Of a DNA stretch of 64,000 nt, positions 8,501 through 27,573 are shown piece after piece. This DNA comes from an uncultured Candidatus Saccharibacteria bacterium (GTDB lineage Bacteria; Patescibacteriota; Minisyncoccia; Phycocordibacterales; UBA9973), in the NCBI GenBank assembly GCA_964500465.1, contig CAZCNB010000004.1, positions 1,160 to 65,159 of the forward strand. Direction: 5' to 3'. The position numbers were made by a program, and so were the translations under genes. The stretch's first letter is position 1, and each line of letters starts with the position of its first letter. Under the pieces are notes generated by a model. That model saw only the letters and a program-made list of their open reading frames with translations, had not been told where the DNA came from and did not search any database.

Positions 8501-11500
8501 AGCACTTCAAAATACTTCAAGTACTGCTGTTGCATACAGCGGTTTAATAACCCTTGGTGCTGCAAGTACAATAATTTCAAACTATGGAGATGTAAATATA
8601 AGTAACACTGGAACTATTACTGGAGCAACATTTGGTCTTACTATCGGTGGTGCAGGCAACGGTACACTTTCAAGTATTTTAGGTACAACTTCTGGAACTT
8701 TAACTAAAAATGGTTTAGGTGTTTGGACTTTATCTGGATCAAGTACTTATACAGGCTTGACTACTATAAGTGCTGGTACTCTTAAACTTGGTGCAGCCGG
8801 TGGTGCAACTAATACTCCTCTTGGTACTACTGGTGGCGCTACATCTATAACAAGTGGTGCGATATTGGATCTTAATGGATTTACTCTAGGTACTTCTGAA
8901 GCTGTAACAATAAACGGTACTGGTATTGCAAACTACGGTGCTTTTATTAATAGTACAAACAATACAATCTCATATACAGGAGCTATTACTATGGGAGCAG
9001 CTTCACGTATCGTTAATTACGGGACAGGTGTTATGACTATATCTGGGAACATTTCAGGTAACTTTGCTCTTACAGTTGTAGCCGTTGGTAATTTCACACA
9101 AGCTACAAATAGTATTTGGTCAGGTACTGGTTCTCTTGTTAAAGAAGGTTCTGGAACTCTTATACTATCTGGGCAAAACACTATGACAGGAGCAATGACT
9201 GTAAGTACTGGTACTCTACAGTTAGGTGCTAATGGAGGAGTTACAAATACACCATTAGGTACTATTGCAGGGGGAGTAACGGTGTCTGCTGGGGCGGTAC
9301 TTGACCTTTCTACATTTACTGCCGGTGGCGCGTCTACTTGGGAACCATTAACTCTTAACGGTAGCGGACTATTAAATGGAGGTGCACTTATTAGTAATTC
9401 TACAACAGGTAGTAGTTTTGCAACTGTTGCTCAAACTAATGCTCGTGTTGTAAATAATGGTTCAGGCGCTTTAGTTATTACTGGTGCTGTAACTGGAGGT
9501 TCTACATTTTGGGTTGGGGGATCAGGTAACACTACAATTTCAGGAGCACTAAATACTGCAGGTTTACTTCTAACTAAATATGGTGCAGGAACTCTAACAT
9601 TAAGTAGTGCTACAAATATTAACACTTCACTTGTTCGTATCAATGCTGGAACTCTTGCTTATGGTGTTGCTGATGCACTTTCTACTCCACCAGTTACTGT
9701 TGCAGGCGGAACTCTCAACTTAAATGGATTTAATGAAACAAATCTCGGAGCCCTTACTCTTATTGATGGATCTGTTGTTAATACTGGGGCTGCAGCAACC
9801 CTAACTTCTACTGCTACTTATACACTAGAAAAAGGGACAGTGAGTGCTGTGCTTGGAGGAACCGTCGTTGCAGTAATAGCAAAAAATACAGCAGGTAAAG
9901 TTATCTTATCTGGTGACAATACATTTAGTGGTACCTCAGCTACTATAGCAGTGAATGCTGGTTATCTTAACCTACAACATAGTAATGCACTTGGTGCAGC
10001 TGCGAGTGCTAATACTACAACAATATCTGGTGGGGCAACGCTTGAACTTGAAAATAGCGTAACGATACCTAGTGTAAAAGCAATTACAGCAAATGGAACT
10101 GGTATGAGTAGAAGTGGCGCGATAAGAAGTGTGAGCGGTACTAATTCAATCGGTGCAAATGTTACCCTAGGTACTACTAATGTAAGAATAAATTCTGATT
10201 CGGGGACACTAACTATACCTACTATATCTGGAAATACTTTCAATCTTATTTTTGGTGGAGCAGGCAATACAACTGTAAGTGGTGCTATTAGTACTACAAC
10301 AGGTAGTCTAACTAAAGATGGAGCTGGAAGTCTTACTTTATCAGGGGTAAATACTTACACAGGAAGCACAACTGCAATAGCGGGTACTATCGTAGCCAAT
10401 AGTACTTCTTCTATAGGTGATGGAAGTAATGCAAACAATACTTTCATATTCAGAGGCGGGACACTTCAAGCTACTGGCACTATAACTTCAGCTTCAACTC
10501 GTGCATTTAGTCTTGCTACAAATGCTATCATTGATACAAACGGAAATAGCATAAGTATTGCTGGTACCGTTGGTTCAACAGGGGGTCTTACAGTAAATGG
10601 TGCAGGTACTCTCACTCTCACTGGGACAACTACTATCGGTGGTAATCTCACTATTGCGTCTGGTACATTTGTTGCACCAACTACCATGACTGTAAACGGA
10701 GATTTTAGTAATAGTGGTACATTTACACACAATAACGGTAGTTTGACTCTAACTCCAACCAACTCAACACTTACAACAAATATTTTAGGTAGTTCCAATA
10801 CAACATTTTATAATTTAATCAATACAACTCCAGGTTCAACAGTCAAACTTAAAGCTGGTAATACATATACGTTTGCAAACGTCCTAAATCTAACCGGAGT
10901 TGATGGTAATCCTATTTCAATAAATTCTGATACCCCTGATTCACAATGGCTAATGACACTATCAGGTTCAAGTTCAATTTCTTACTTGAAAGTTAAAGAT
11001 TCTGGATGTAGCGGAGGTAATAGTGTTGGAGCAAGTAGTAATATATACAATTACGGCAATAACGGTCCTTGCTGGTCTTTTGTTACTCCTACTCACGGAG
11101 GAGGAGGTGGTGGTTATATAGAAGGATCAGGTGCACTTGGTACTGTAGTTCTTACTGGAAATGTAGTTACTGGAGTTATTATTACCAATGGCGGAGGTGG
11201 ATATTCTACTCCACCAACGGTTAAATTCTGTGGCGGCGGTGGATCCGGAGCTCTAGGGACAGCAGTTTTAAGTAGTGGATCTGTTTCAAGTGTTACTATC
11301 GATAACGGTGGCTCCGGCTACAGTTCTTCAGTTACAGTTGTATTTGGCAGCAATTGTCCTACAACTGGCGGGGGCGGCGGAGGAACTGGAGGTAGTAGTA
11401 GTGCACGCGCAACTGCAGTAGTGTCTTCAAATGTTGTTCAGAGTGTAACTATAGATTTTGGTGGTAGTGGTTACACATCTACTCCAACAGTTAAATTCTG

Positions 11501-11780
11501 TGGCGGCGGTGGATCCGGAGCTCTAGGTACAGCAGTTTTGACAGGGGATTCTGTTTCAAGTGTTACTGTTGATAACGGAGGTTCTAATTACACGAGTGTA
11601 CCTAGTGTAGTATTCAATAGTAATTGTCCTACAACTGGTGGAGGTGGAGGTGGAGGTGGAGATATAGGTTTCTTGTACGATAAAAAGAGAATGTTTGCAC
11701 TGCTTGATCAGTCTGGACTTATAAATATTAAAAGTTACTTCTCTAAAATTTTCACAAGTAAGTTTAATTACTTTAAATAA
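2529..11780 (+). CDS. Giant (3083 aa) secreted surface protein made of autotransporter-associated beta-strand (PATR-type) repeats. It is a probable adhesin.
   Basis: It has a GTG start and a signal peptide (IFAIFFVAVFLFSFNTKFTEA). Dozens of ~32-aa repeats of the type G.GTLTLSG.NTYTG.TTI..GTL.LG appear. There are six ~150-aa modules of the form LKLGAAGGATNTPLGTTAG...LDLNGFTLG. The protein is Gly/Thr/Ser-rich. No C-terminal beta-barrel is recognisable. Confidence 0.85.
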   Translation: MKKNFTNSIRIFAIFFVAVFLFSFNTKFTEAATRTWTGTTSGSWSVASNWGGTAPVTGDDLVFPSGASNLSNTNDFIENTIFNSITFSGSGYTISGNPIILGAGLAGITDSVSSGGNTIALDIRLDVTRDIVVTNTTETLTISGRISGVGGINKEGTGKLILSGANTFGGILKINVGVVNAQNNTALGTIAGGTEVVGNAALELQGNINISYEALALRGYGPSSGGALRNISGNNNFSGLITMVAGGAEISSDSGTLTLLGGSSGGFPLTIDGSGNITFDKTPIIAGATVTKNGAGTLKYNFPNTYTGLTTINAGTLLYGVDNAILTGGITVTGGTLDIATYSDMVGTVTLGTLDLASGTITGTTGMLSSATWTLYNGTISAIIAGDGGTITKSTPGTVVLTRPNQFTGAVTISTGILEVQDSNALGLIDGITTVTAGATLQINGSGLSIPEYITFSGTGHLYTGAIRNKTGNNTLTGLLTLGTAGLIESDSGTTLTIDGKGLSAANIGLVIGGAGNVTFTSNAPIYGSGATLTKNDTGTLTLQGFNNFTGSTNLSRGEIVLSGSGAIPNSAITIGSGGTLTIDNSTTSALNRLSETAALTMNGGTFKFIGSSSGDVAESTGALTLASGHNIIDISPGSGGSTTMTFSSLSRTAGATALFRGTNFGSKPGSNVSTLMFTSAPTLIGGGGAANSPTISIIKGVFGDTSLSGTGSDMVTYNIGNTYGIRLLNSVGFTGEYSGDLNTPNANVKLTLDRAATTTNTNSIILDGFNITNPGGATTLPIASASLAGNILIDSATNIDGANTTLGITTFELNILASSNSTISAVIGTAVAGSLTLSGTGNVTLSGASAYTGTTSINNATLTAGANNILSTGGLTVIGGTYNIGNFSESLGAVILQNGTITGGSGVLTSTASYSFREGTVSAIIAGAVAVTRIATNTAADSVVTMTRNNTYTGATTITSGILRLGGAGDATNTPLGTTAGSTTVANIAALDLNGFTLGTAEAISIAGLGYGLGSTVANGNSNLGAIMNSSASAVSYSGAITLTAAARINADSGNLTISSAFSGAFGLTIGGFSNSTLSGVIGIGTGTITKDGIGVLTLSNSNTYTGSTTISAGTLKLGAAGGATNTPLGTTAGITTVSTGARFDLNGFTLGAAEPLTLNGVGYGLGDFASGALINSSGSTVSYSGLITLGSSGVLIKADSGTINLTNTGTISGATFALTLGGTGIGTLSSIIGTTTGTVTKIDTGTWTLSAAASTYTGATTINRGTLKLGVAGGATNTPLGTTGGGTSILSGGVLDLAGFTLGTAEALTINGRGINDGGALINSGGAATFAGAITQATDSRITNSGSGLLTLSGAISGVFALYIGGTNNITTAVLGMGTGTLTKQGSGTVTATGTHTYTGETRIDEGTFAYGATTTLAATNLLMKGGTFNSGANADTIGTVTLVGGTITNSAALTGTAYTFESGTISGILAGAVAVTKNTNNTVNLTGVNTISSTITINAGTLSLSGAGTATAVTGVTVNLGGTLTLDNSTTNSGDRLSGTTNNIVITMNGGNLNFIGNSAAAASETLGKLALASGHNVVTVTPGAGGSTTLTFGNNPGFNRTAGATVLFRGTSFGATPAANVSTLIFSTAPTLTGAAGAANSTTISVIKGAFGDSSLSGTGSDMVTYNVGNTNGLRLLNGAGFAGEYATALTTNTNVKLSANTVASTASINSLILNGFGITNPGSAATLTIGSASLAANILMNSSTDIAGANTTVAFSTVELSVLANNTSTISAVLNTAASGPMTLSGSGNVTLSAANAYTGTTTINNATLTYGVSNAISTGGLTIVGGLVNLNGNSDTVGTISINAGRITTGAGTLTGNGTFSTVANNNVASTITGNLGLGANATFTINDGLMDNDAFISAVISGAFTFAKAGAGVLELSGSNTYTGTTTISAGILRLGAAGDATNTPLGTTAGSTTVSGASSALDLNGFTLGTSEALTLSGALATGALQNTSSTAVAYSGLITLGAASTIISNYGDVNISNTGTITGATFGLTIGGAGNGTLSSILGTTSGTLTKNGLGVWTLSGSSTYTGLTTISAGTLKLGAAGGATNTPLGTTGGATSITSGAILDLNGFTLGTSEAVTINGTGIANYGAFINSTNNTISYTGAITMGAASRIVNYGTGVMTISGNISGNFALTVVAVGNFTQATNSIWSGTGSLVKEGSGTLILSGQNTMTGAMTVSTGTLQLGANGGVTNTPLGTIAGGVTVSAGAVLDLSTFTAGGASTWEPLTLNGSGLLNGGALISNSTTGSSFATVAQTNARVVNNGSGALVITGAVTGGSTFWVGGSGNTTISGALNTAGLLLTKYGAGTLTLSSATNINTSLVRINAGTLAYGVADALSTPPVTVAGGTLNLNGFNETNLGALTLIDGSVVNTGAAATLTSTATYTLEKGTVSAVLGGTVVAVIAKNTAGKVILSGDNTFSGTSATIAVNAGYLNLQHSNALGAAASANTTTISGGATLELENSVTIPSVKAITANGTGMSRSGAIRSVSGTNSIGANVTLGTTNVRINSDSGTLTIPTISGNTFNLIFGGAGNTTVSGAISTTTGSLTKDGAGSLTLSGVNTYTGSTTAIAGTIVANSTSSIGDGSNANNTFIFRGGTLQATGTITSASTRAFSLATNAIIDTNGNSISIAGTVGSTGGLTVNGAGTLTLTGTTTIGGNLTIASGTFVAPTTMTVNGDFSNSGTFTHNNGSLTLTPTNSTLTTNILGSSNTTFYNLINTTPGSTVKLKAGNTYTFANVLNLTGVDGNPISINSDTPDSQWLMTLSGSSSISYLKVKDSGCSGGNSVGASSNIYNYGNNGPCWSFVTPTHGGGGGGYIEGSGALGTVVLTGNVVTGVIITNGGGGYSTPPTVKFCGGGGSGALGTAVLSSGSVSSVTIDNGGSGYSSSVTVVFGSNCPTTGGGGGGTGGSSSARATAVVSSNVVQSVTIDFGGSGYTSTPTVKFCGGGGSGALGTAVLTGDSVSSVTVDNGGSNYTSVPSVVFNSNCPTTGGGGGGGGDIGFLYDKKRMFALLDQSGLINIKSYFSKIFTSKFNYFK
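4441..10100 (+). repeat. Large internal duplication inside the giant gene (~2.8-kb unit). The two anchor segments are at 4441-4800 and 7263-7620, and the PATR modules between and after them recur.
   Basis: Translated segment GSGGSTTMTFSSLSRTAGATALFRGTNFGSKPGSNVSTLMFTSAPTLIGGGGAANSPTISIIKGVFGDTSLSGTGSDMVTYNIGNTYGIRLLN recurs as GAGGSTTLTFGNNPGFNRTAGATVLFRGTSFGATPAANVSTLIFSTAPTLTGAAGAANSTTISVIKGAFGDSSLSGTGSDMVTYNVGNTNGLRLLN about 940 aa downstream. Confidence 0.7.
11090..11670 (+). repeat. Four tandem ~45-aa Gly-rich repeats at the C-terminus of the giant protein. Exact nucleotide repeats underlie them.
   Basis: There are alternating units ...GALGTxVLxxxxVSSVTIDNGGSGYxSxPTVKFCGGGGSG and ...VVFxSNCPTTGGGGGG. 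The string gttaaattctgtggcggcggtggatccggagctctagg occurs twice (~11218 and ~11494). The string aattgtcctacaactggygg also occurs twice. Confidence 0.7.
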
Positions 11781-11820
11781 CCAAACGATTAATTTATTCT
11801 TGCCCCCGCTATTTCTATCG

Positions 11821-11849: not shown

Positions 11850-11856
11850 ATCAAGT

Positions 11857-12366
11857 ATGTCTACTAACTTCAGGATTGATGAATCAAGCACATCTGATCA
11901 ATATGAATCCCAAGACCGTGTTTTTACAACAAGGATTGTAAAAAAAAGACCATTTATGACCAAACGAAAGTTTACAAATACCATCATGCTGATAGCTTTA
12001 TTAATAGCACTTTCTTTTAGTGGATATTTGTATTATAAGCTCAACAATCTACAAAAAAATACTAAAGAAAATGTCGATAAAGAATCAAAAGATTTACTTA
12101 GTAAGGTTGCACGGTTATATTTAATACCAACTGGTGAAGAACCAACTATAGCTACAGTTTCAGATCCAGTTAAATTAAAAGATCAATCTTTTTTTTCTAG
12201 TTCTCAAAAAGGTGACAAAGTTCTTATTTTTTCTGAAGCAGGAAAAGCTGTGCTATATAGACCAAGTATAGATAAGATTATAGAAGTTGCTCCAATAAAT
12301 AATTCTAAGAAAGATGCTAAAGTACCTGAAAAAACAACAGAACCAACTAAAGATAAGACATTTTAG
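11857..12366 (+). CDS. Small membrane-anchored hypothetical protein. The N-terminus is cytoplasmic, there is one TM helix, and the tail is extracytoplasmic.
   Basis: It is an ORF of 169 aa with a TM helix IMLIALLIALSFSGYLYY. No family could be assigned. It sits at the 5' edge of the surface-protein island. Confidence 0.5.
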   Translation: MSTNFRIDESSTSDQYESQDRVFTTRIVKKRPFMTKRKFTNTIMLIALLIALSFSGYLYYKLNNLQKNTKENVDKESKDLLSKVARLYLIPTGEEPTIATVSDPVKLKDQSFFSSSQKGDKVLIFSEAGKAVLYRPSIDKIIEVAPINNSKKDAKVPEKTTEPTKDKTF

Positions 12367-13393
12367 TCTAATTGCATCATTTGTTTTCTTCCTGTCTCTT
12401 CTTTATCCATTCTCACAAATTTTTGCAGCACTATCTTGTAATGTTACTACTCAGGCAGCTTGTACTGGCGGAAGTGTAATACTCTTGCGCATGTCTGGTT
12501 CTACAAACGCTCACGCTGAACTTCCAAGTCAATCAAATACAAACTATGACAACTATGTTATATGTTGTTCAAGTTCTTCATCTATTGGAAATTCATGCAG
12601 TGCGTTTAATAAACAAGTGTTTTTAAAACTATCCGGTGTAACCAATGGCACTGTTCAAGAAACAAGTGTTAATACTTATGGAACTGATGCATGTCTTTCT
12701 GATGCAGTAGGGAACGATACTATTACTGTAGGATATCAGAATTCAAATTGTACTGGATACGACACTACTCTTGCTTCAATTTCTTCTTCAGATAATGCTC
12801 ATATAGGAGACGGCAGCGCTTATACTAGAAAAGTTTGTGCAACTGTCATACCTCAAACTATTTCTTTTGATATAGATACTGCATCTGACTTTAGTAATGG
12901 AGAGTCAAGTGCTCCATATTCTGTTGATTTGGGGACAATAACTACATCTACTGTTAAACATTCAGACAGTTCAACAGTGCGCATGATTGTATTAGAAGGA
13001 GATACAAATGCAGCCGGTGGCATGGTAGTAACAGTTCGAAATGCAAATGGTACAAACGGTCTAGTGTCTACATCAACTCCAGCAGATAACATAAACAGTG
13101 CAACAGCAACAATGGCAAACGGTACAGAAAACTATGGACTATGTGTTGCAACAGCTGGACTTACTGGATTTTCTAGGTCAACTGGCTATAGTTCTGATTC
13201 GTGTTCGCTTGCTTCAGGCACTAATGGTGTCCAAGCTCTAAGTACAACTCCAACAAGTATTATCAATTCTGCTGGAGCTCCAATTACCGGGGGTCATGCT
13301 GAGGTTGTTGTAAATGGAGCAGTTAGTGCAACAACTGCGTCTCACAACGACTACGCGGACACTCTAACATTCATTGCTACAGGGACATTTTAA
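12314..13393 (+). CDS. Secreted surface protein, paralog A. It has a signal peptide, a Cys-rich N-terminal region and a shared C-terminal ~190-aa domain that looks WxL-like with Met in place of Trp.
   Basis: The signal peptide is KIRHFSLIASFVFFLSLLYPFSQIFAA. The C-terminal domain runs from ISFDIDT... through RMIVLEGDTNAAGGMVVTVRNANG... to the terminal motif YADTLTFIATGTF*. This domain is shared with the downstream gene. Its first 17 codons overlap the preceding ORF. Confidence 0.7.
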   Translation: MLKYLKKQQNQLKIRHFSLIASFVFFLSLLYPFSQIFAALSCNVTTQAACTGGSVILLRMSGSTNAHAELPSQSNTNYDNYVICCSSSSSIGNSCSAFNKQVFLKLSGVTNGTVQETSVNTYGTDACLSDAVGNDTITVGYQNSNCTGYDTTLASISSSDNAHIGDGSAYTRKVCATVIPQTISFDIDTASDFSNGESSAPYSVDLGTITTSTVKHSDSSTVRMIVLEGDTNAAGGMVVTVRNANGTNGLVSTSTPADNINSATATMANGTENYGLCVATAGLTGFSRSTGYSSDSCSLASGTNGVQALSTTPTSIINSAGAPITGGHAEVVVNGAVSATTASHNDYADTLTFIATGTF

Positions 13394-13502
13394 GTAAAGT
13401 TATCCACATATATAGACGTTTTTTTGGTTATTTGGATATTTTTATGATAAAATATACGTATAAAAAGTGGCATTATTATTATTAATTTACAAGAAGTTTG
13501 TT

Positions 13503-14702
13503 ATGAATATTATTAAAATTATAAAATCTGTTTCTTCTAAGTTTGCTACCAGTTTTCTTATCGTAGCTTTGGTTGTTGTAAGTACATTTGGACCACAGTT
13601 GGCAACAGCTGCGTCCTTTACAACATCAAAGGACACTACTACGCGTCTAAAGTTATCTACTACTGCGGACCATATAATTAACTTCACATTACCAACTGGA
13701 GTTACTTTTGATGTATCTGGTAACACTGACGTCCTACGCGTTGATTTTCCTTCTTCCTTTACTCAGGGTGGTACTTGGCAAACAGCTGATTTTACATTTA
13801 ACGACGGTACAGCAAGAACAGTGAATGCTGTTTCAGCAGGAGCTGGTACTATAGATGTTACTTGTACAGATGCTGCCAACAACGTTGGTGTTGCTATCGA
13901 TACGACTAACTTAGTATTTACAGTTAAACCTTGTGGAGCATCATTCACAGCTTCAGGTTCTGCAGCTACTGTGACATTCACAATATTTGGTACAACAACT
14001 ACAGGTACTGGAACCTTAACTAATCCTTCATCTGTTGCTGCAACTAATATAGACTTTGGTATGTGTGACGAAACAGCTTCATGTACTTCTTCATACACAA
14101 ACTCACATTCAAGTCAGATTGCATATGCGATAGCTGATGATGATCAAGTTAACGTCTCTGCGATTGTAGGTTCATCAATAAACTTCGATATAGATACTTC
14201 TGTTGCAGATGCTGAAACAAACACACCTTATACTGTTGCTCTCGGTACTGTTACAACCGCTGATACACGCATTTCAGGAAGTACTGACAGTGTGAACATG
14301 ATAATACTAGAAGGTGACACTACTGGTGCCGGTGGCATGGTAGTAACAGTTCGAAATGCAAACGGTACAAACGGTTTAGTATCTACATCAACTCCTGCAG
14401 ATAACATAAACAGTGCAACAGCAACAATGGCAAACGGTACAGAAAACTATGGACTATGTGTTGCAACAGCTGGACTTACTGGATTTTCAAGAGCTGGATC
14501 ATATAACTCAGGTACATGTGCGCTAAACACTCTCAGTGATGTGAAGGCTCTAAGTACAACAGATGCTAATATAATCAGCACCACAGGACCATTTACTGGA
14601 GGCCATGCTGAAGTTGTAGTAAGTGCTGCTATAAGTACTTCAACTGTTGCTCACAATGACTACGCCGACACACTTACCTTTATTGCTACAGGTACATTCT
14701 AA
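13503..14702 (+). CDS. Secreted surface protein, paralog B, carrying the same C-terminal domain
   Basis: The probable start is MNIIKIIKSVSSKFATSFLIVALVVVSTFGPQLATAA, which is a signal peptide. The C-terminal 190 aa are paralogous to 12314..13393 and include a near-identical 161-nt stretch. It ends in the identical motif HNDYADTLTFIATGTF*. Confidence 0.7.
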   Translation: MNIIKIIKSVSSKFATSFLIVALVVVSTFGPQLATAASFTTSKDTTTRLKLSTTADHIINFTLPTGVTFDVSGNTDVLRVDFPSSFTQGGTWQTADFTFNDGTARTVNAVSAGAGTIDVTCTDAANNVGVAIDTTNLVFTVKPCGASFTASGSAATVTFTIFGTTTTGTGTLTNPSSVAATNIDFGMCDETASCTSSYTNSHSSQIAYAIADDDQVNVSAIVGSSINFDIDTSVADAETNTPYTVALGTVTTADTRISGSTDSVNMIILEGDTTGAGGMVVTVRNANGTNGLVSTSTPADNINSATATMANGTENYGLCVATAGLTGFSRAGSYNSGTCALNTLSDVKALSTTDANIISTTGPFTGGHAEVVVSAAISTSTVAHNDYADTLTFIATGTF

Positions 14703-14721
14703 AAATTAACTCTTTAATTAA

Positions 14722-15753
14722 ATGCCCACTTTCTCTAACAAAAGAGTCGCAAATACTCTACTAATACTGGTTGCTATAGTGTGCTTTTCTTATGCACAAA
14801 ATGTTTCAGCACTAAGCATTTCTCCAGTAAGAGTTGAGGTAAGTGGTAATCCTGGTGAGACTATAGAAAAAGAGACAACCCTAATAAATGATAGTGATGC
14901 TTCAGAAGTAATATACTATTCTTCATATGCCAACTTTGAAGCATCTGGAGATACGGGTAATCCTTCTTTTGTAGAAGGTAATCATGACATAGCAACATGG
15001 ATGTTTGTTCCTGCTTCAATTAGCCTAAAACCTAAAGAGTCTAAAAAGATAAACTTAAAAATTGAAATTCCAAAAGATGCTGAACCAGGAGGTCACTTCG
15101 GTGCAGTGTTTTGGGGTACTAGTCCAAACAATCCAGGCTCAGGTGTTTCTATCGGTGCAAAAACTGGAGTCCTAGTCCTTCTTTCTGTAAATGGAGATGT
15201 AAAAGAGGGTGGAGGACTAGTTGATTTTGTTTTGAAAGATAAAAAAGTATTTTATAACACACTACCAGTATCTCTTGTATATAGATTTAGAAATGATGGA
15301 GGTGATCGTATAAAACCAGTAGGTAAAATTACTATGCATGATTTATTCTATATACCTGAGGATAAAATAAATGCGAATCCTACAAGTGGTAATATCCTCC
15401 CTAATAGTACTCGACGTTTTGAGGTTGATTGGGTTAAAAATCCAAGAGCTAAAGATTACGTAGAACCTAATGGACCTATAGGGAAATTTTTTGATAAGGC
15501 ACTTTACCAATGGAAAAACTATGCTTTTGGACCATATTTTGCAAAATTGGATCTTCTTTATGGTACAAATGCAACCCGTGTTTCTAAAACAGTTTTCTTC
15601 TTTGTATTTCCTTGGCAATTATTAATATGCCTAGCGGTCATCTTGTTTATTGTATTTTGGGGAGGAAGGAAACTACTTAGACGTTACAATAGATACATAA
15701 TACAAAAGGCTCGTCTTGGTATTAAAACACCAAACGATGCCGGTCATGAGTAA
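14722..15753 (+). CDS. Cell-surface protein with an N-terminal Ig-like beta domain and a C-terminal TM anchor. It resembles DUF916/DUF3324 (CscA-like) proteins of WxL clusters.
   Basis: It has a signal peptide. The segment SISPVRVEVSGNPGETIEKETTLINDSD...KESKKINLKIEIPKDAEPGGHFGAVFWG fits the DUF916-like pattern as I remember it. A C-terminal TM helix (FFFVFPWQLLICLAVILFIVFW) is followed by the basic tail GGRKLLRRYNRY. Confidence 0.55.
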   Translation: MPTFSNKRVANTLLILVAIVCFSYAQNVSALSISPVRVEVSGNPGETIEKETTLINDSDASEVIYYSSYANFEASGDTGNPSFVEGNHDIATWMFVPASISLKPKESKKINLKIEIPKDAEPGGHFGAVFWGTSPNNPGSGVSIGAKTGVLVLLSVNGDVKEGGGLVDFVLKDKKVFYNTLPVSLVYRFRNDGGDRIKPVGKITMHDLFYIPEDKINANPTSGNILPNSTRRFEVDWVKNPRAKDYVEPNGPIGKFFDKALYQWKNYAFGPYFAKLDLLYGTNATRVSKTVFFFVFPWQLLICLAVILFIVFWGGRKLLRRYNRYIIQKARLGIKTPNDAGHE

Positions 15754-16633
15754 TATAAAATCAATATTATCTTTTGCCCTTATTTTTTTAGTGGCTTCAG
15801 CTATACCTATTTATGTTTTTGCTATAGATTACTCTCTGCCTCCTGAAAATGTATCAGTTTCTGCTGTTGTTACTGGACCAATTATTGGTCCTATAGATGA
15901 TGGTGGTGGAGGTGGTGGAATGTTATATGGTCTTATATTTTCAGGTTGGGCTTATCCAGGAGCCACAGTGCATATAATGAAAGACGGTATTCCTAAGACA
16001 ACTACTTTAGCAAATAGTGAAGGTTATTTTAGTGTTACTCTTAGCGAATTATATAAATCAAATGTTTTATATACTTTATACGCTATAGATAAAGATAATA
16101 GACGATCTATATTACTAAACTATCCAATTGTAGTGAAAATAGGTTATTTTACTCAAATCTCTGGTATCCGTTTCCCACCAACCATATCTACTGATAAAAA
16201 TGAAGTAAAAGCAGGAGATTCAATAATTGTACGAGGTTATGCTTTACCAAATAAACTTCTTGATGTTGTAATACAGGGTATTAGCGGAAAAACTTTTTAT
16301 GTAACTAGTAATCCAGATGGAACTTATGAGTTACCCATATCACTTTTTGGATTTAGAAAAAATAATTACAACTTACACGTAAATTATAATTTGGATAAAA
16401 AAATAAGTAAGGTTATTCAATTTACAATAGGTGACGCTAATATTTTAAGTGTAGATTTGGTTAATAACTTACCAGGCGATTGTAATGCTGACCAAATTAT
16501 AAATATAGTAGATTTTTCTGTTGCAGCTTTTTGGTATGGTAAACCAAATCCACCACGTTGTATAGATACTAATAACGACAATACTATCAATCTTATCGAT
16601 TTTTCTATATTGGCATTTTACTGGACTGGATAA
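15746..16633 (+). CDS. Secreted protein with two CarboxypepD_reg/Cna-B-like beta-sandwich domains and a C-terminal dockerin-like double EF-hand module
   Basis: The start at 15746 overlaps the upstream stop. A signal peptide and a poly-Gly linker (DDGGGGGGM) are present. PGATVHIMKDGIPKTTTLANSEGYFSV and AGDSIIVRGYALPNK...SNPDGTYELPI are Cna-B-like. The C-terminus DCNADQIINIVDFSVAAFWYG...DTNNDNTINLIDFSILAFYWTG has two D-x-N-x-D-x3-N-x2-D loops, each followed by a hydrophobic helix, which is the dockerin signature. Confidence 0.65.
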   Translation: MSNIKSILSFALIFLVASAIPIYVFAIDYSLPPENVSVSAVVTGPIIGPIDDGGGGGGMLYGLIFSGWAYPGATVHIMKDGIPKTTTLANSEGYFSVTLSELYKSNVLYTLYAIDKDNRRSILLNYPIVVKIGYFTQISGIRFPPTISTDKNEVKAGDSIIVRGYALPNKLLDVVIQGISGKTFYVTSNPDGTYELPISLFGFRKNNYNLHVNYNLDKKISKVIQFTIGDANILSVDLVNNLPGDCNADQIINIVDFSVAAFWYGKPNPPRCIDTNNDNTINLIDFSILAFYWTG

Positions 16634-16640
16634 CTAGAAT

Positions 16641-17507
16641 ATGAAAAAAATTTTATTTATAATAGTAATATTTTTTGTTCACACACTTACTACACACGCA
16701 GCAAGTGTTTCTATTGTTGCACCTACAACAGTTGAAACCACAAATCAGTTTAATGTTTCTGTGTATCTAAATACCGAAGGGGTATCAATAAATTCTATCG
16801 ATATTACATTATCTTACCCAGATGACATTATGATCTTTCAGGGATATAAAGAAGATGGTGGAGTCAAGAAAATTTGGATTCAAACTCCAAAAGAACAGAA
16901 TGGCACTATTCGTTTTTCTGGTATTATTCCTGGTGGTGTAAATGGTATTTATGATCCAGATAAGATCGGATTACAACCTGTGCCACTTACTACTTTACTT
17001 TTTTCTCCAAGAGCGAATGGTTCTGGTGATCTATCAATACTTAATTCCAAGATTTTACAAAATGATGGAATTGGAAGTGAATTACTTCACACAATTTCTA
17101 ATCAAAAAATCCTAGTCAGTATCTCGAACGAATCTCTAGAAGAAAACAAACAATCTATTTTAGACAAAGAATTACCTGAACCATTTAAGATTGAATTCAT
17201 ACCATCAGGTTTATTTTCAGAAACACCCTCCATGATATCTTTTTTTGCAGTGGATAATTTATCTGGAGTAGCAAAATATCAAGTAAAAGATGGGAGTAGT
17301 ATATGGAAGGATGCTACAAGTCCACTAGTTACTCCAAAAGGGATAGTTAAAAGAACTATAACCGTACGAGCTATAGATTTCTCAGGGAATGTGCGTGAAT
17401 CTAGTATAGATATACCAGGCATACTTTCTGCGATACAATTGGTGGCAGTTTTTATACTTTTCACTGTTTGCTACTTCATGTTTTTTGTGGTAAAAAGAAG
17501 AAGATGA
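16641..17507 (+). CDS. Membrane-anchored cohesin-like protein 1
   Basis: It has a signal peptide. ASVSIVAPTTVETTNQFNVSVYLNTEGVSINSIDITLSYPDDIMIF...GTIRFSGIIPGG fits the beta-strand pattern of a cohesin domain. A C-terminal TM helix LVAVFILFTVCYFMFFVV is followed by KRRR. Confidence 0.6.
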   Translation: MKKILFIIVIFFVHTLTTHAASVSIVAPTTVETTNQFNVSVYLNTEGVSINSIDITLSYPDDIMIFQGYKEDGGVKKIWIQTPKEQNGTIRFSGIIPGGVNGIYDPDKIGLQPVPLTTLLFSPRANGSGDLSILNSKILQNDGIGSELLHTISNQKILVSISNESLEENKQSILDKELPEPFKIEFIPSGLFSETPSMISFFAVDNLSGVAKYQVKDGSSIWKDATSPLVTPKGIVKRTITVRAIDFSGNVRESSIDIPGILSAIQLVAVFILFTVCYFMFFVVKRRR

Positions 17508-18613
17508 AATACTACGTAAAGACTATAATATATAGTATTTTAACTTTAGTAGTATTTCTTACTACGCCTGTATATGCTGGAAACTCTTCACTTTTCTTAG
17601 GAAAATCTCAATCAACAGTTGGTGAGGGAAGCAACATAACTATTGATGTAAAAGTAAAATCACCAGATGAACCTATTAACGCAGTATCCGGATCACTTTC
17701 TTTTCCTAGTGATTTATTGCAAATTGTTTCTATTTCAAGAGATGATAGTATTTTGAATATCTGGACCCATGATCCAAATATCAGCAGAAATAAGATTTCT
17801 TTTGAAGGAGTGATACTAAATCCTGGTTATATTGGTCAAGGTGGAAGCATTTTCCATATTACCTTTCAGGCAAAGAAAATAGGAACAGCTACCATATATT
17901 TTAATGAAGGTTCAATACTTGCAAACGATGGACTTGGAACAAATATCATAAATGGGTTGAGTTCTACTAGTTTCAATATTATTGCATCTGGTGCACTTGA
18001 TCTAGTAAGGCCAATTGCAACAAATAATAATGGTAGATTAATGGCTCTGCCAGTTATAACTGAATATTCCGAGTCAGTGTATTCTAAGGATAGTGTTTAC
18101 CTAAGAGGAAAGGGGGAACCAAATGCTGTTACAAAACTTTCTTTTGAAAAAGTATCTAATAAGTCCTTCGGTGAACAGTTTTTAGATTTTATTCAGTCTA
18201 AAAAGAAACGCTTAACTGATGTATTAGTAAAAAATAATGATAAAGGTTTGTTTGAATATATTACTCCTAATAATTTGATCGCAGGAGTTTACAATGCCAC
18301 ACCTTTCTTAGTTGATGACAATACAAATACTACAAAACCAGGTCTTGGTGTTAGACTATTTGTGAATGATAGTAAGATAATAAAAGCACTTATTGTTTTT
18401 ATAAATATACTAATACTGTTAATACCAATAGTTGGACTAATAATGCTAATATATTTTATCCCTTGGTATTCATCTCGAAGAATGCGTATACTCAAGCGTA
18501 AAATGGGCCTCGAAGAAGAGAAAATTCAACTTACTGAGCATGAGTTAGAGCGCCAAGATAAGATGCTTTCCCAAGCACCCATACCGCCCATATCTACTGA
18601 AAAAAGGGAATAA
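17504..18613 (+). CDS. Membrane-anchored cohesin-like protein 2 with a cytoplasmic coiled-coil tail
   Basis: The probable start at 17504 overlaps the upstream TGA by 4 nt. It has a signal peptide. The cohesin-like segment is GSNITIDVKVKSPDEPINAVSGSLSFPSDLLQIVSISRDD...SIFHITFQAKKIGTATIYF. A TM helix (ILILLIPIVGLIMLIYFIPWY) is followed by a charged helical tail RRMRILKRKMGLEEEKIQLTEHELERQDKML. Confidence 0.6.
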   Translation: MKYYVKTIIYSILTLVVFLTTPVYAGNSSLFLGKSQSTVGEGSNITIDVKVKSPDEPINAVSGSLSFPSDLLQIVSISRDDSILNIWTHDPNISRNKISFEGVILNPGYIGQGGSIFHITFQAKKIGTATIYFNEGSILANDGLGTNIINGLSSTSFNIIASGALDLVRPIATNNNGRLMALPVITEYSESVYSKDSVYLRGKGEPNAVTKLSFEKVSNKSFGEQFLDFIQSKKKRLTDVLVKNNDKGLFEYITPNNLIAGVYNATPFLVDDNTNTTKPGLGVRLFVNDSKIIKALIVFINILILLIPIVGLIMLIYFIPWYSSRRMRILKRKMGLEEEKIQLTEHELERQDKMLSQAPIPPISTEKRE

Positions 18614-18632
18614 ATGTGGTATTATATACCTT

Positions 18633-19724
18633 ATGAGAAGATTTAATATCTCGGTAATTCTCGTTATTTTTGTATTAATATCTGGCTTCCCAAATATAAT
18701 TAATGCAGATAGTGATATTTTAACACCCCAAGAAAACTTGTGGCTTAAGTCTCGCAACAATACTATTATTGTTTATCCAGAAAAGAATTTTCCTCCATAT
18801 TCTTATCAAAATGCTTCTAGAACACCCCAAGGTTTATCGATAGATTATATAGAGCTTGTTGCTAAAAAAGTAGGAGCAAAAGTCGAGTATTTACAAGCTC
18901 GCCCACTTTATCAGATATTAGATGATATAAAACAAGATGGTAAAGGTGATGTAGTCACCTCATTATCTGAAAATAAAGAAAGAGATGATTTTTTATATTT
19001 TTCTGATACCTATATTACTAGTCCTGCAGTTATAGTAGTGCGTAAAGATTTAGATAAGAGAAGTGATATGACACTATCTGACTTAACTGGCAAGAAAGTG
19101 GCTATTGGTGATCAATATGCAGTTGAAGACTTTGTTCGGGTTAATAATCCTAGGGTTGTTATAGATTCAGTAACTGACGATGAGTTGGGCCTACAAAAGT
19201 TAGTTTTAGGAGAGGTTGATGCAGCAATTATTGACGTTACTTCTTTATCTTATTATCTTTCAAAGCAAGTACTAAATAGTGTTAGAATTGTAGGTAGTAC
19301 AGGGTTTGAATATAAGCTTTCTTTTGCTGTACCTAAAGATAAAGAAATACTCCAATCAATAATAGATAAAGGTTTACAGCAAATAAGTACAAATGATAGG
19401 AAAATTATTACCGATAAATGGGTAGTGATACCTAATAAATCAAGCTCCACTAATCCTTTTATTTCTTATCTCAAACAGAATATTAGCACAATAGTACTTT
19501 ATGTCTTACTTTGTGCAATAATATTAATGTTACTTATTAGAAGAACAAATGGAACAAGATATTTTTCTTTTAGAAATCGCACCAAGATGGATAAAGTTAA
19601 TGAGTTAAAACAGGAGATTATTGAACTAGAAGATACTAGTAAAGGTCTCATGGAAGAATTAAATGAAGTTAAAATTCTTGAAGAAAATATAAAAGAAAAA
19701 GTTAAAAGTATTGAAACTCAATAA
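18633..19724 (+). CDS. Orphan solute-binding (SBP_bac_3 / sensor-type VFT) ectodomain protein with a C-terminal TM helix and a short cytoplasmic coiled coil
   Basis: It has a signal peptide. LTPQENLWLKSRNNTIIVYPEKNFPPYSY...GLSIDYIELVAKKVGAKVEYLQ matches the N-terminal signature of SBP_bac_3 domains found on sensor kinases and ABC-transporter binding proteins. A TM helix (IVLYVLLCAIILMLLI) and the coiled coil ELKQEIIELEDTSKGLMEELNEVKILEENIKEK follow. No kinase or other output domain is present. Confidence 0.65.
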   Translation: MRRFNISVILVIFVLISGFPNIINADSDILTPQENLWLKSRNNTIIVYPEKNFPPYSYQNASRTPQGLSIDYIELVAKKVGAKVEYLQARPLYQILDDIKQDGKGDVVTSLSENKERDDFLYFSDTYITSPAVIVVRKDLDKRSDMTLSDLTGKKVAIGDQYAVEDFVRVNNPRVVIDSVTDDELGLQKLVLGEVDAAIIDVTSLSYYLSKQVLNSVRIVGSTGFEYKLSFAVPKDKEILQSIIDKGLQQISTNDRKIITDKWVVIPNKSSSTNPFISYLKQNISTIVLYVLLCAIILMLLIRRTNGTRYFSFRNRTKMDKVNELKQEIIELEDTSKGLMEELNEVKILEENIKEKVKSIETQ

Positions 19725-19767
19725 ATTTATAATCGCGTTTTAAAAACAAATTTTATACTCATAATAT

Positions 19768-20856
19768 ATGAAATCATTATTAATCTATATATTCCTGATC
19801 GCTGTACTAATAACCCCAACATCTAGCACTAAAGCACAATCAAACTTACTTAATAGTGAGGAAAATATATGGATTTCTTCAAGGAATAATACTATCTCAG
19901 TGGTTCCAGAAAGAAACAATCCGCCCTTTTCTTTTAATGATTCATCCTATATATCCCAAGGTATATTTATAGATTATATAAAGCTTGTTTCTGAAAAATT
20001 AAATATTAAAGTAGATTTTTTAACTTCTCGTACTAGATCTGATATTATTGCAGGAATATATGAAGATAAAGCTGATTTTGTTTCTACTCTTGAGATTGAT
20101 AAAATTGAAAACACCAATCTAGCTTCCACAAGTCCTTATTCTACTTTCCCAGTTGTTATTGCGGTTCGTAAAGATTATGACGCAAGAGAGGGGATGACAC
20201 TAGATGATTTTAATAATAGGAGTGTTGCTGTAATGCAAGATTCTCCTATAAATTCTTATATAAAGAAAAATTACCCAAGGATAGTTATACAAGAAGTAGT
20301 CGATAACGAGCTTGCTTTACAAAAAGTAGCTCTAAACGAAGTTGATGCTACGGTCATAAATTCCGCATCTCTAACTTATCTACTTTCTAAACAATCTATG
20401 CGTAGCATAAAAGTTGTAGGAAGTATTCCTCTTGATTCAAAAATGTCATTTGTTGTTCCGAAAGACAAATTAGTTTTAAGTTCTATTTTGACTAAAGGAT
20501 TAAAACAAGTTAGCGCCAAAGAGCACCAGCAGATAATTGATAAATGGATTTCATTACCCAACGAGAAAGACAATAAGAATACTCTGATTACTTACATTAA
20601 CGATAATTTTGTTATTATACTTATTACACTATTGTTTTTAGTAATATTAGTATCAATGTTTTTATTCTTTAGAAAAAGAAATCATTATTTTAACTATAAT
20701 CACGAACATAAAAATAGTAAATTAATTGAATTAGAAAAAGAAATATCCGAACTTGAATCTACTAGTGCCAGTTTGATAGATGAACTTAAGGAGGTAAAAA
20801 ACTTAGAACAAGATATTAAAAATAAAATTAGACAAGGAGAATCTATCCATCATTAA
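19768..20856 (+). CDS. Tandem paralog of the orphan SBP_bac_3-type ectodomain membrane protein
   Basis: The architecture is the same. It contains NIWISSRNNTISVVPERNNPPFSF...GIFIDYIKLVSEKLNIKVDFL, a TM helix IILITLLFLVILVSMFLFF and a C-terminal coiled coil SKLIELEKEISELESTSASLIDELKEVKNLEQDIKNK. It is about 35-40% identical to the upstream copy. Confidence 0.65.
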   Translation: MKSLLIYIFLIAVLITPTSSTKAQSNLLNSEENIWISSRNNTISVVPERNNPPFSFNDSSYISQGIFIDYIKLVSEKLNIKVDFLTSRTRSDIIAGIYEDKADFVSTLEIDKIENTNLASTSPYSTFPVVIAVRKDYDAREGMTLDDFNNRSVAVMQDSPINSYIKKNYPRIVIQEVVDNELALQKVALNEVDATVINSASLTYLLSKQSMRSIKVVGSIPLDSKMSFVVPKDKLVLSSILTKGLKQVSAKEHQQIIDKWISLPNEKDNKNTLITYINDNFVIILITLLFLVILVSMFLFFRKRNHYFNYNHEHKNSKLIELEKEISELESTSASLIDELKEVKNLEQDIKNKIRQGESIHH

Positions 20857-20881
20857 TTTAAAAATTAATTATCATATTTTT

Positions 20882-21388
20882 ATGAGTAATCAAAAAGGTT
20901 TCACATTAATTGAACTACTTGTCGCGGTAGCTATAATCGCAATATTAGCCAGTGTAATAATGACTATGTCTTCTAATGCAAGGAATAATGCCAAAGATGC
21001 AGCTATCAGAAGGCAGTTTGCAGAATTTACTAAACTGCTTTTGCAAGAATATGTTGATAATGGTACTTATGCAAATCTTCAACTTCCAGCAACTTATTTT
21101 TATACTAAAGAAGATTGCGAATCAGGATTTACTTCAAGTGTATATGTTTCTGAAGCCCGAGCTATATGTAAAGAGATAGTTAAAAATTTAAATAACGGAG
21201 CATTTTATGTAGGAGCTAATAATCCTAGTTCTCAAAAGTATTCTATTTCAACAAACTTGAACACACCAGTTTACTTATCTGGAAATCCCACAGGGCATGA
21301 TTATTGTGTTGGAAGTAGTGGGACTTACGATGGCACCTCTGTAGGTAATGGAAGTCAGACCCAAAAAGGTTGTTATAATAACCCTTAA
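20882..21388 (+). CDS. Type IV pilin / pseudopilin (prepilin N-terminal cleavage-methylation domain)
   Basis: The N-terminus MSNQKGFTLIELLVAVAIIAILASVIM is a canonical class III signal peptide, with the motif G|FTLIEL and a hydrophobic alpha1 helix. Confidence 0.9.
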   Translation: MSNQKGFTLIELLVAVAIIAILASVIMTMSSNARNNAKDAAIRRQFAEFTKLLLQEYVDNGTYANLQLPATYFYTKEDCESGFTSSVYVSEARAICKEIVKNLNNGAFYVGANNPSSQKYSISTNLNTPVYLSGNPTGHDYCVGSSGTYDGTSVGNGSQTQKGCYNNP

Positions 21389-21426
21389 AATATACTAAAA
21401 ATATAGTAGCTAATTTTAGCCTAAAA

Positions 21427-21435
21427 TGCTATAAT
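21427..21435 (+). promoter_or_regulatory. Extended -10 element (TGcTATAAT) upstream of gyrB. It implies a near-leaderless gyrB start at 21448.
   Basis: tgctataat lies at 21427-21435. The MAKKEEK start codon is at 21448. The upstream in-frame ATG at 21439 would fall inside the promoter. Confidence 0.35.
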
Positions 21436-21447
21436 TACTTGGTATTT

Positions 21448-26661: not shown

Positions 26662-27573
26662 ATGGCAAACAGGCACCTTTCACGTTCAATCGTTCTACAA
26701 ACACTCTTTGAGTGGGATTTTGGTGCACAAAAAGATGTAACTCCAGAGGAAATGTTAAGTCACAATATAGAAGAATTCGGTCCAGGACTTGATGATTCTT
26801 CTTTTATGAGCGAAGTTTTCCTAGGTGTTGTAAAGAAGAAAAATATTATTGATGAGATAATCGAAAAGGCTGCTCCAGATTGGCCAATAGAAAAAATCTC
26901 CGTTGTCGATAGAAATATCCTTAGATTGGGATTGTATGAATTACTTTTTGGTGATCGGACTCAAGTTCCACCAAAAGTGGCTATAAATGAATCTATTGAG
27001 CTTGCTAAGAGTTTTGGTGGAGAGAATTCTAGTAAATTTATAAATGGAGTTCTAGGTGGTGTTTATAAAGAACTTGGAGAACCAGGTAAAGACGATGTTG
27101 GTAAACCAAAAATTAAAATAAAAAATCAAGAAACAGATCCTAGTAAATTCCCAATAGAAAAAAAAGCTGGCGCAGTAATATTTTCAAAAAATAATGGACA
27201 GATATACTTTGCTTTTGTTCATGATGTGTTTGGATATTGGACATTATCTAAAGGCGGAGTGGAAGATAATGAAGATGTTGAAGCAGGAGCAATCAGAGAG
27301 ATAAAAGAAGAGTTGGGAATTGATATTAAGATAAAAGAAATGCTTGGTCAAAACGAATATGTTGCTACTCATCCTGAAAAAGGAAAGATTAGAAAACAAG
27401 TAACTTTTTTCTTAGCTGAAGCAGATTATGGAGATATTGAATTAAAAAATACATCAGGTGGACTTGATAACGCTAAATGGTTTCCGATTGAAGAGATTAC
27501 AAGTCTTAAAATGTATGACAATATGATCCCGCTTCTTACAAAGGCAATTGAAATACTAACTAAGGCAGAATAA
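26662..27573 (+). CDS. nusB: NusB antitermination factor fused to a C-terminal Nudix hydrolase domain
   Basis: The N-terminal ~140 aa (MANRHLSRSIVLQTLFEWDF...RLGLYELLF) is NusB. The C-terminal part contains a perfect Nudix box, GGVEDNEDVEAGAIREIKEELGI (G-x5-E-x7-REUxEExGU). Confidence 0.85.
   Translation: MANRHLSRSIVLQTLFEWDFGAQKDVTPEEMLSHNIEEFGPGLDDSSFMSEVFLGVVKKKNIIDEIIEKAAPDWPIEKISVVDRNILRLGLYELLFGDRTQVPPKVAINESIELAKSFGGENSSKFINGVLGGVYKELGEPGKDDVGKPKIKIKNQETDPSKFPIEKKAGAVIFSKNNGQIYFAFVHDVFGYWTLSKGGVEDNEDVEAGAIREIKEELGIDIKIKEMLGQNEYVATHPEKGKIRKQVTFFLAEADYGDIELKNTSGGLDNAKWFPIEEITSLKMYDNMIPLLTKAIEILTKAE

Follow-up and report, generated by a model that had tools for sequence, protein, structure and literature searches.

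What can a sensor-type ligand-binding domain do in a protein that carries no output domain? Two adjacent genes raise this question in a 64-kb stretch of DNA (contig CAZCNB010000004.1; hereafter the window) from an uncultured member of the Patescibacteria, or candidate phyla radiation (CPR). Their products, the solute-binding proteins (SBPs) SBP-A and SBP-B, are predicted to consist of a Venus flytrap (VFT) ectodomain, one transmembrane (TM) helix and a short cytoplasmic coiled coil. Our results favor, with about as much confidence as doubt, a reading in which the SBP is a kinase-less receptor subunit that binds ligands of the amino-acid type within a surface apparatus specific to Patescibacteria. 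The features of the two genes are listed here; positions throughout are those of the whole window, and L-numbers (e.g., L009) denote retrieved related loci or contigs.

18633..19724, + strand: SBP-A open reading frame (ORF), 363 amino acids (aa); Pfam SBP_bac_3; AlphaFold (AF2) model
18708..19424, + strand: predicted VFT ectodomain of SBP-A (aa 26-264) with an intact amino-acid-type pocket, from the alignment with HisJ and family frequencies
19470..19541, + strand: predicted TM helix of SBP-A (aa ~280-303), from AF2 helix 284-307 and the C-terminal TM of orthologues
19584..19718, + strand: predicted cytoplasmic helix of SBP-A (aa 318-362), about six heptads, from AF2, conservation and the positive-inside rule
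19768..20856, + strand: SBP-B ORF, 362 aa; Pfam SBP_bac_3; same architecture as SBP-A, with a remodelled pocket
20608..20670, + strand: predicted TM helix of SBP-B (aa 281-301), the hydrophobic stretch FVIILITLLFLVILVSMFLFF, then RKRN
20710..20835, + strand: predicted cytoplasmic coiled-coil tail of SBP-B (aa ~315-356), from identity with the SBP-A tail and the family tail hidden Markov model (HMM)

Architecture, ancestry and pocket of the paired flytraps

An identical SBP protein is present on 12 independent metagenome contigs, and at least 186 homologue clusters are of equal length (~360 aa); the ORF is therefore a genuine gene, conserved among relatives, and did not arise by chance. SBP-A and SBP-B are paralogues, 42% identical over their full length (E 1e-94), and both exceed the Pfam gathering cut-off for SBP_bac_3 of 26.4 bits (72.6 bits for SBP-A and 55.3 bits for SBP-B). 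Both also contain an N-terminal element, 'LTPEE..WL...PE.NFPPYSY', that is near-invariant across the family. An earlier note, made from the sequence alone, had read both N-termini as belonging to VFT domains of this type, and the Pfam scores, the motif and the modelled two-lobed fold bear this out.

SBP-A begins with a signal peptide (aa 1-25), an N-terminal hydrophobic helix ending ...INA/DS. Its AF2 model, built from 112 homologues, has a predicted local distance difference test score (pLDDT) of 88.4 overall and of 93-98 in the VFT core (residues 30-263), where it shows a two-lobed alpha/beta fold with a hinge. Low-confidence linkers (264-274 and 308-316, the latter basic and disordered) flank the TM helix at ~275-307, and residues 318-362 form a single long helix. 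In the family, the 15 residues that follow the TM carry a net charge of +5.25, as against -0.17 before it; this positive-inside pattern, found in 112/112 members, places the ectodomain outside and the tail inside. SBP-A is thus predicted to cross the membrane once, as a type I protein, with the VFT outside, one TM and a cytoplasmic helix. The earlier note had described a single TM helix followed by a coiled coil of ~40 aa and no output domain. These descriptions hold: the tail comprises ~55-60 aa and includes a helix of ~45 aa whose hydrophobic residues recur with 3-4 spacing, and scans with Pfam and NCBIfam found no output domain in either protein, both of which end ~60 aa past the TM. The Pfam scan and topology prediction that the note had proposed were run, and they recovered the fold and the outside-in topology.

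The ectodomain has its closest relatives among sensors. The best sequence match in the PDB is the periplasmic domain of RmcA (7ejg, 102 bits), with BvgS and EvgS also at the top, while the best transport-type protein reaches 65 bits. In Foldseek the top structure for SBP-A is again 7ejg (E 1.6e-25, TM-score 0.90, rmsd 2.0 Å), followed by VFT2 of BvgS at TM-scores of 0.89-0.90 and then by arginine- and glutamine-binding proteins; ArgBP, the substrate-binding domains (SBDs) of GlnPQ and AncQR match at TM-scores of 0.75-0.86. A scan of one genome per species yielded ~35 members of the family, from Patescibacteria, together with seven outgroup proteins that are 27-34% identical, all of them VFT-TM-(PAS)-HisKA-HATPase kinases (BLASTP aligned three outgroup kinases at 29-34% identity and 132-154 bits). 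The LTPEE-WL helix of the family aligns with RmcA, BvgS and the outgroup kinases. The transport equivalogs of NCBIfam score far under their cut-offs (67 bits versus 312 for the FliY model and 60 versus 256 for TIGR01096), as does the GrrP orphan extracellular binding-like model TIGR04262 (30.6 bits versus 190), and an MltF-type model, NF008112, matches weakly (E 3e-8). The RmcA and BvgS matches, the kinase outgroups, the shared helix and the low equivalog scores together indicate that the SBP ectodomain belongs to the BvgS/EvgS/RmcA sensor lineage. The earlier note had stated that such domains are elsewhere fused to histidine kinases or diguanylate cyclases, and the closest proteins outside the family are indeed all kinase- or GGDEF-EAL-fused VFTs. 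Because the defining output is absent, the SBP proteins themselves fall outside the two-component and cyclic di-GMP (c-di-GMP) sensor families. An ectodomain search of 1.84 billion representatives was discarded as a test of sensor versus transport ancestry because its ranking was inflated by the summed scores of multi-VFT repeats; the only free-SBP-sized match in its top 150 was a 260-aa fragment resembling a truncated family member. Homologues come almost only from Patescibacteria assemblies labelled Paceibacteria, Nomurabacteria, Parcubacteria or Minisyncoccia, and some third-party assemblies with homologues carry the label Saccharibacteria.

The pocket of SBP-A is of a recognizable type. 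In the classical structures of HisJ, Y14, S70, S72, R77 and D161 clamp the alpha-carboxylate and alpha-ammonium groups of the ligand; F53, S110, S112, R117 and D201 of SBP-A align to these positions. Within the family, D201 is present in 111/111 members, R or K at position 117 in 96/111 and S110 in 75/111, and Y58, F123 and Y227 are invariant or nearly so among the 111. Conservation of this Ser/Arg/Asp clamp makes an amino-acid-like ligand the best guess for SBP-A and its family.

The corresponding positions of SBP-B are N53, F58, E112, E117, S123, N201 and S227, so the clamp is not kept. A B-type pattern of N53, F58, E112 and N201, with position 117 unconstrained, recurs in six contigs (the window, L009, L012, L013, L052 and L096). 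B ectodomains from the window, L009, L012 and L013 are mutually 71-79% identical but are just 41-48% identical to any A-type or single-copy protein. Given that both the substitutions and the mutual identity are conserved, SBP-B appears to be a maintained, neofunctionalised, lineage-specific paralogue and not a decaying copy; it would bind a different ligand or else partner SBP-A without binding one itself. In most genomes the SBP gene is single-copy. The tandem arrangement stressed in the earlier note is therefore real in the window but does not define the system, since most relatives are single-copy and SBP-B is restricted to one lineage. An independent tandem duplication of the SBP-TM-tail gene is present in another lineage (L073, 7147-9400; L081/L082, 6985-9235), where, unlike SBP-A and SBP-B of the window, both copies have the canonical pocket (D201, R/K117 and Y227). 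We also looked by eye for A/B hetero-specific e/g charge pairs in the tails; the pattern was equal for homo- and heterodimers and is evidence neither way.

The tail is better conserved than the helix that precedes it. Its approximately six heptads contain conserved L332, L339, E342, E350 and K356; on our reading of the alignment, two of the core positions, S336 and E350, are polar and conserved. Between SBP-A and SBP-B the tail is 51% identical as against 21% for the TM; among close orthologues the values are 57-81% for the tail and 10-59% for the TM, and no TM column is >=80% conserved in the family. The family tail HMM matches the SBP-B tail (E 3e-15), and a tail is present in every family member, including those retrieved independently. 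This conservation relative to the TM, and presence throughout the family, suggest that the tail has a sequence-specific role. In BLASTP alignments the tail is co-linear with the post-TM helix of outgroup kinases, and with 'SHELRTPL' in L049, which is a positional equivalence only. Descent from a kinase signalling helix or DHp H-box was rejected, as the tail HMM had no significant match to the outgroup kinases, a generic SMC coiled coil being its sole match. A search for the tail as a portable module, with its profile against 5.8 billion proteins, gave two 65-aa fragments; the sensitivity of this search was limited, as full-length family members were missed too.

A conserved module of surface proteins

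The earlier note had described the genes as orphans. This description does not hold, as the SBP gene is the terminal gene of a conserved module of about nine genes for surface proteins, which that note did not see. The evidence consists of the gene contexts of six relatives, annotated with Pfam, and BLAST synteny over 42 genome loci. The gene order U1-U2-G1-G2-G3-G4-G5-SBP is found in ~32 non-redundant genome loci, and the SBP gene is always last in the array in every relative with upstream sequence. Neighboring module genes overlap or lie only a few bases apart, the G5-SBP gap ranging from a 4-nt overlap to 50 nt, and no terminator-like site was found on the + strand within 11500-21600. The flanks of the array differ among genomes (gyrB, ychF, thrS, NYN, a receiver domain or a pilin); since the order within the array is constant, the array is the conserved unit. 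In the window the other genes of this region are as follows.

2529..11780, + strand: giant PATR-repeat protein, 3083 aa, predicted beta-helix, autotransporter-passenger-like (Pfam PATR, 11 repeats, E 4e-47)
11857..12366, + strand: U1, small bitopic membrane protein of ~150 aa, start of the module (sequence; synteny in 25 loci)
12314..13393, + strand: U2, secreted paralogue of G1, ~360-410 aa, with a Cys-rich N-terminal half (joint alignment; synteny)
13467..14702, + strand: G1, secreted, two predicted immunoglobulin (Ig)-like beta-sandwich domains, adhesin/pilin-like, ~360-410 aa (AF2 pLDDT 93.5; Foldseek)
14722..15753, + strand: G2, Ig-like (fn3_5 / WxLIP_PGBD-like), ~340 aa, conserved C-terminal TM and tail, FVFPWQL...FWGGKKLIKRYNRHIIQKAR (weak Pfam matches; conservation)
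15716..16633, + strand: G3, secreted, Big_6 Ig-like, with a dockerin-like C terminus, ~300 aa (Pfam sub-threshold, recurring in relatives; synteny)
16641..17507, + strand: G4, C-terminal TM anchor with a tail of 0-9 aa, ~290 aa (synteny; TM in 38/38; weak OmpL47-type domain)
17468..18613, + strand: G5, cohesin-like ectodomain, ~370 aa, near-invariant C-terminal TM and tail (Pfam Cohesin; conservation; synteny)
20882..21388, + strand: type IV pilin-like gene directly downstream of SBP-B (Pfam N_methyl, TIGR02532; some relatives only)

In all relatives the gene just before SBP is that for G5, and the two frequently overlap by 4 nt. A reverse test, in which 80 metagenome loci were retrieved through G5 instead of SBP, gave 38 loci with enough sequence beyond a short G5, and in 34 of them an SBP-TM-tail gene comes next. 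A more distant variant of the module, whose long G5 (530-610 aa) bears additional Ig-like domains and a helical cytoplasmic tail of ~95 aa, never occurs with an SBP; such G2/G3-G4-G5 variants make up L098-L130 (e.g., L128, 6846-8570; L110, 6941-8659). Homology between the SBP tail and the ~95-aa tail of the long G5 was considered and rejected, with no match found (best E 0.72).

A C-terminal TM ends G2, G4, G5 and SBP in every orthologue (37/37 for SBP and 38/38 for G4). The TMs of SBP and G4 vary, whereas those of G5 and G2, with their tails, are almost invariant: the C terminus of G5 (...IYFIPWYSxRRMRILKRKMGLEEEKIxLTEHxLERQDK) and that of G2 (FVFPWQL...VFWGGKKLIKRYNRHIIQKAR) are near-invariant in orthologues that are 45-55% identical overall. 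This conservation exceeds what an anchor needs. Domain assignments in the module are less sharp. Foldseek with G1 returned only generic Ig-like adhesin and pilin folds (the MSCRAMMs SdrG, SdrE and FnBPA, Als, the GBS pilus backbone, CfaB and integrin legs), no Pfam family was found for G1 and U2, and profiles of G1/U2, G2 and G5 against PDB sequences gave nothing useful, the G2 profile having zero matches. Among 33 G2 orthologues, sub-threshold fn3_5 matches occur in 25 and WxLIP_PGBD matches in 22 (best E 8.5e-5). The Cohesin match of G5 is 26.3 bits in the window (cut-off 24.1), but only 6/37 orthologues match at E<=0.05; in G3, Dockerin_1 scores 17.2 bits against a cut-off of 22.9 and Big_6 is likewise sub-threshold. 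The picture suggested by these sequences is of a multi-protein, membrane-anchored surface complex, several subunits of which have short conserved cytoplasmic peptides.

Several further observations concern the module and its surroundings. A homologue of the giant PATR protein lies directly upstream of U1 in at least nine other loci. This secreted protein has at least 11 repeats of the autotransporter-passenger type, yet no outer membrane is expected in the organism that encodes it. The C-terminal domains of U2 and G1, ~190 aa ending in HNDYADTLTFIATGTF, are nearly identical, with long stretches in which every residue agrees, and their N-terminal halves are unrelated, a pattern that suggests recent gene conversion or domain shuffling. 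A pilin-like gene follows SBP also at L009 (12217-12720), and in L061 (2233-4290) no stop codon separates the SBP ORF from a pilin-like 'KEGFTIIEILVVV' sequence, which may be a fusion or a sequencing error. Extra G4-G5-like pairs, or a lone G5-like gene, occur without an SBP at L025 (19798-21076), L030 (19436-21059) and L019 (8784-10076); as these genes lie elsewhere in the same genomes, the cohesin-like TM proteins appear to be a small paralogous family. The window as a whole has a low GC content (~31-40%) and contains the housekeeping genes gyrB, thrS, nusB, rnc, smc, rnr, trmD, dnaG, rpoD, tsf, rpsB, mreBC, tgt and uvrABC. A 303-aa ORF in it (26662-27573, + strand) fuses NusB (aa 7-136) and a NUDIX hydrolase (aa 189-287), as also seen in the relatives L001 and L004.

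Possible functions of the SBP

How, then, might such a protein act? The receptor reading builds on the fold, topology, lineage and pocket conservation described above, on operon membership and on the absence of linked ATP-binding cassette (ABC) genes. The VFT of SBP-A would hold an amino-acid-like ligand by the residues that clamp its alpha-carboxylate and alpha-ammonium groups, and a flexible linker and sequence-variable TM would tether the VFT to the membrane. The six-heptad cytoplasmic helix most likely holds SBP-A as a parallel dimer or oligomer. The SBP would thereby report or exploit an external amino-acid-like ligand, either free or on the wall of a partner cell, and it would act through lateral contacts with membrane-anchored proteins of the module or through tail-driven oligomerisation, not through an enzymatic output of its own. 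A bolder version appears quite improbable to us: that the module is a Patescibacteria-specific machine for contact with a host or partner, with the VFT-TM-coil protein as its kinase-less receptor, in which an amino-acid-like cue, environmental or from a host wall, would change the oligomeric state, the tails of SBP, G5 and G2 would control the assembly or activity of an adhesin complex, and SBP-A and SBP-B would form a GABA-B-like heterodimer of a binding and a non-binding flytrap in the lineage of the window.

Several points weigh against a receptor. The intact amino-acid pocket is equally expected of a transport SBP, and ABC partners need not adjoin. The SBP is an accessory and not a core subunit, as the long-G5 modules lack it; its tight linkage to the module holds within one clade. 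Signals for cohesin, dockerin and WxLIP domains are weak, and the matches of G1 are to generic Ig-like adhesin folds only. The earlier note had suggested that the pair could be ligand-sensing subunits that signal by way of the coiled coil to a partner. On either side of the TM, however, the linkers vary in sequence and have low confidence in the AF2 model, which argues against rigid helix-to-helix transmission; mechanical transmembrane signalling of the BvgS type is thus unlikely on the model, and the protein may simply be tethered. Finally, no conserved downstream gene that might encode a cytoplasmic partner or output was found across ~35 loci, the genes 3' of SBP being unrelated and variable housekeeping genes (gyrB, ychF, thrS and others), and a motif scan of the family loci found no H-box kinase ORFs nearby. 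The gene next to SBP on its 3' side at L005 (8625-9008) encodes a stand-alone response-regulator receiver of 127 aa, in GCA_028868715.1 only; L006 has a 127-aa gene without a Pfam match in the equal position. The G5 tail was tried as a complementary coiled coil and rejected, as the tail HMM did not detect it and its hydrophobic spacing, by eye, is 2-5 and not 3-4.

One rival is that the SBP is an ordinary transport protein, tethered by its C-terminal TM in a cell without a periplasm and feeding an ABC or other importer encoded elsewhere, with the tail aiding anchoring or clustering. This is a real, if unlikely, possibility. CPR bacteria, with their reduced genomes, depend on imported amino acids; SBP-A and most of the family keep the amino-acid triad intact; ArgBP, the GlnPQ SBDs and AncQR match in fold at the scores given above; and the JGI annotates family members as COG0834 binding proteins. 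The earlier note had itself offered surface tethering as its alternative, which is compatible with the data; three other proteins of the module are likewise anchored by a C-terminal TM. However, the nearest relatives are sensor VFTs and not transport SBPs, the sensor-type LTPEE-WL helix is near-invariant, every transport equivalog HMM falls far under its cut-off, and the conserved tail sequence would be superfluous for a mere anchor. The gene is, moreover, tightly linked to genes for adhesin-like surface proteins and not to transport genes. The window contains no ABC permease, and UvrA is its sole ABC-type ATPase. A scan of flanks of 6-10 kb at more than 100 module loci for Walker-A and signature motifs, validated on UvrA, gave two candidate ORFs only, one from the Patescibacteria genome loci and the other from metagenome loci totalling 546 kb. 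Of the two findings that the earlier note had set against its own proposal, an ABC permease/ATPase operon was not seen in the window or beside the gene in more than 70 related loci, and a failure of the VFT fold was not seen in SBP-A or SBP-B. With so few linked ABC genes, the sensor lineage and the operon context, a transporter dedicated to the SBP is unlikely; this judgement covers the window and the linked flanks, and an unlinked transporter may exist.

It is also possible, but to a similar degree doubtful, that the SBP is a purely structural or adhesive part that passes no signal inward. The VFT would then be a lectin-like head or scaffold, gripping, for example, the peptide stem or an amino-acid moiety of the host wall, as the SBP_bac_3 domain of MltF does. 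The giant beta-helix, Ig-like adhesin-like and cohesin/dockerin-like proteins encoded alongside, the flexible linkers, which decouple the ectodomain from the tail, and the weak match to NF008112 all point in this direction, and the surface exposure of the module fits the epibiotic lifestyle of CPR bacteria. Against it stand the lineage of signalling VFTs and the conservation of the tail, but not of the TM, across the family, which implies a specific cytoplasmic function. That the SBP is a functionless relic, left behind when a VFT histidine kinase lost its catalytic part, has next to no chance of being correct: all the nearest outgroups are VFT kinases, and in BLAST the alignments to them stay co-linear across the TM and on into the tail, but the constant length of ~360 aa in at least 186 clusters, an ectodomain with 46% of its alignment columns >=80% identical, an invariant pocket Asp, a conserved operon position and a tail profile that misses kinase helices form a pattern, suggestive of purifying selection on a stable architecture, by which this idea is effectively refuted.

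The Patescibacteria form a very large branch of bacteria, few of which have been cultured. They are thought to live in attachment to other cells, and how they sense and grip their partners is scarcely known. In the searchable literature we found no description of the VFT-TM-coiled-coil protein, of orphan VFTs in the CPR or of the module. The present work delineates a conserved surface module of nine genes, two of whose products could be modelled with confidence, and identifies the SBP as the one component with a predictable small-molecule pocket, whose ectodomain of ~240 aa is a tractable ligand-binding handle. It also reveals a widespread and stable architecture of a sensor domain without an output, to which automated annotation at present wrongly gives the name of an ABC-transport binding protein. 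Should the tail signal, this would be a new and minimal design for a single-pass bacterial receptor without a kinase or cyclase domain; if it does not, a sensor VFT would have been re-used as a subunit of a surface complex.

Comparison with known systems

The module may be compared with surface assemblies of Firmicutes. Like the WxL/Csc clusters, it is an operon of secreted Ig-like proteins, and G2, with its C-terminal TM, may be DUF916/WxLIP-like, to judge by weak matches. No WxL domain was found in G1 or U2, and G1 matches the WxLIP-WxL complex 9i25 in structure only at E 4e-3 (probability 0.35). With regard to the cohesin-dockerin assemblies, G5 may be cohesin-like and G3 dockerin-like, with signals at or under threshold, and no LPXTG protein was seen in the module. 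We know of no WxL/Csc or cohesin-dockerin system with a VFT-TM protein.

Among binding proteins, HisJ, GlnH, ArtJ, ArgBP and the GlnP-fused SBDs have the fold and the Ser/Arg/Asp clamp in common with SBP-A, and where there is no periplasm SBPs are normally tethered to the membrane. SBP-A differs from the SBPs of polar amino-acid ABC systems in scoring under every equivalog cut-off, in having no linked permease or ATPase, and in its extra N-terminal helix and cytoplasmic coiled coil. With regard to the pair, there is an analogy, but only an analogy, to the GABA-B-type VFT heterodimers of class C G-protein-coupled receptors, in that the SBP pair consists of co-encoded paralogous VFT subunits, one with a canonical and one with a degenerate pocket, each with a cytoplasmic coiled coil; the SBP pair lacks the 7-TM domain, and there is no homology beyond the VFT fold.

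The closest resemblance is to the sensors RmcA, BvgS and EvgS, which have in common with SBP-A a signal peptide, the LTPEE-WL helix, an SBP_bac_3 VFT and a TM directly after the VFT. SBP-A has one VFT, not two, and a helical tail of ~55 aa in place of PAS, HisKA/HATPase, GGDEF or EAL domains. In BvgS the last VFT helix continues into the membrane, whereas the linkers around the TM of SBP-A are flexible and variable. The SBP-A gene lies in a surface-protein operon and not beside a response-regulator gene. Over the first ~310 residues the layout of SBP-A is almost superimposable on that of RmcA, with its signal peptide, VFT (21-265), TM (267-286) and linker (287-308), and the VFT of RmcA binds L-arginine with micromolar affinity (PMC10423028). 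A precedent for a sensor of this family without its own output is the GlnH-GlnX-PknG system of Actinobacteria, in which GlnH, a soluble protein or lipoprotein, is an SBP_bac_3 amino-acid sensor with neither a transporter nor an enzymatic output of its own and signals through the four-TM protein GlnX to a kinase of the same operon (PMC6069109, PMC9769921). No GlnX- or PknG-like neighbours were seen in the six Pfam-annotated contexts of our family, and the SBP VFT, unlike GlnH, carries its own TM and tail. GlnH nevertheless resembles the SBP proteins in having an SBP_bac_3 domain without an output of its own, and it shows that seemingly orphan SBPs can be dedicated sensors.

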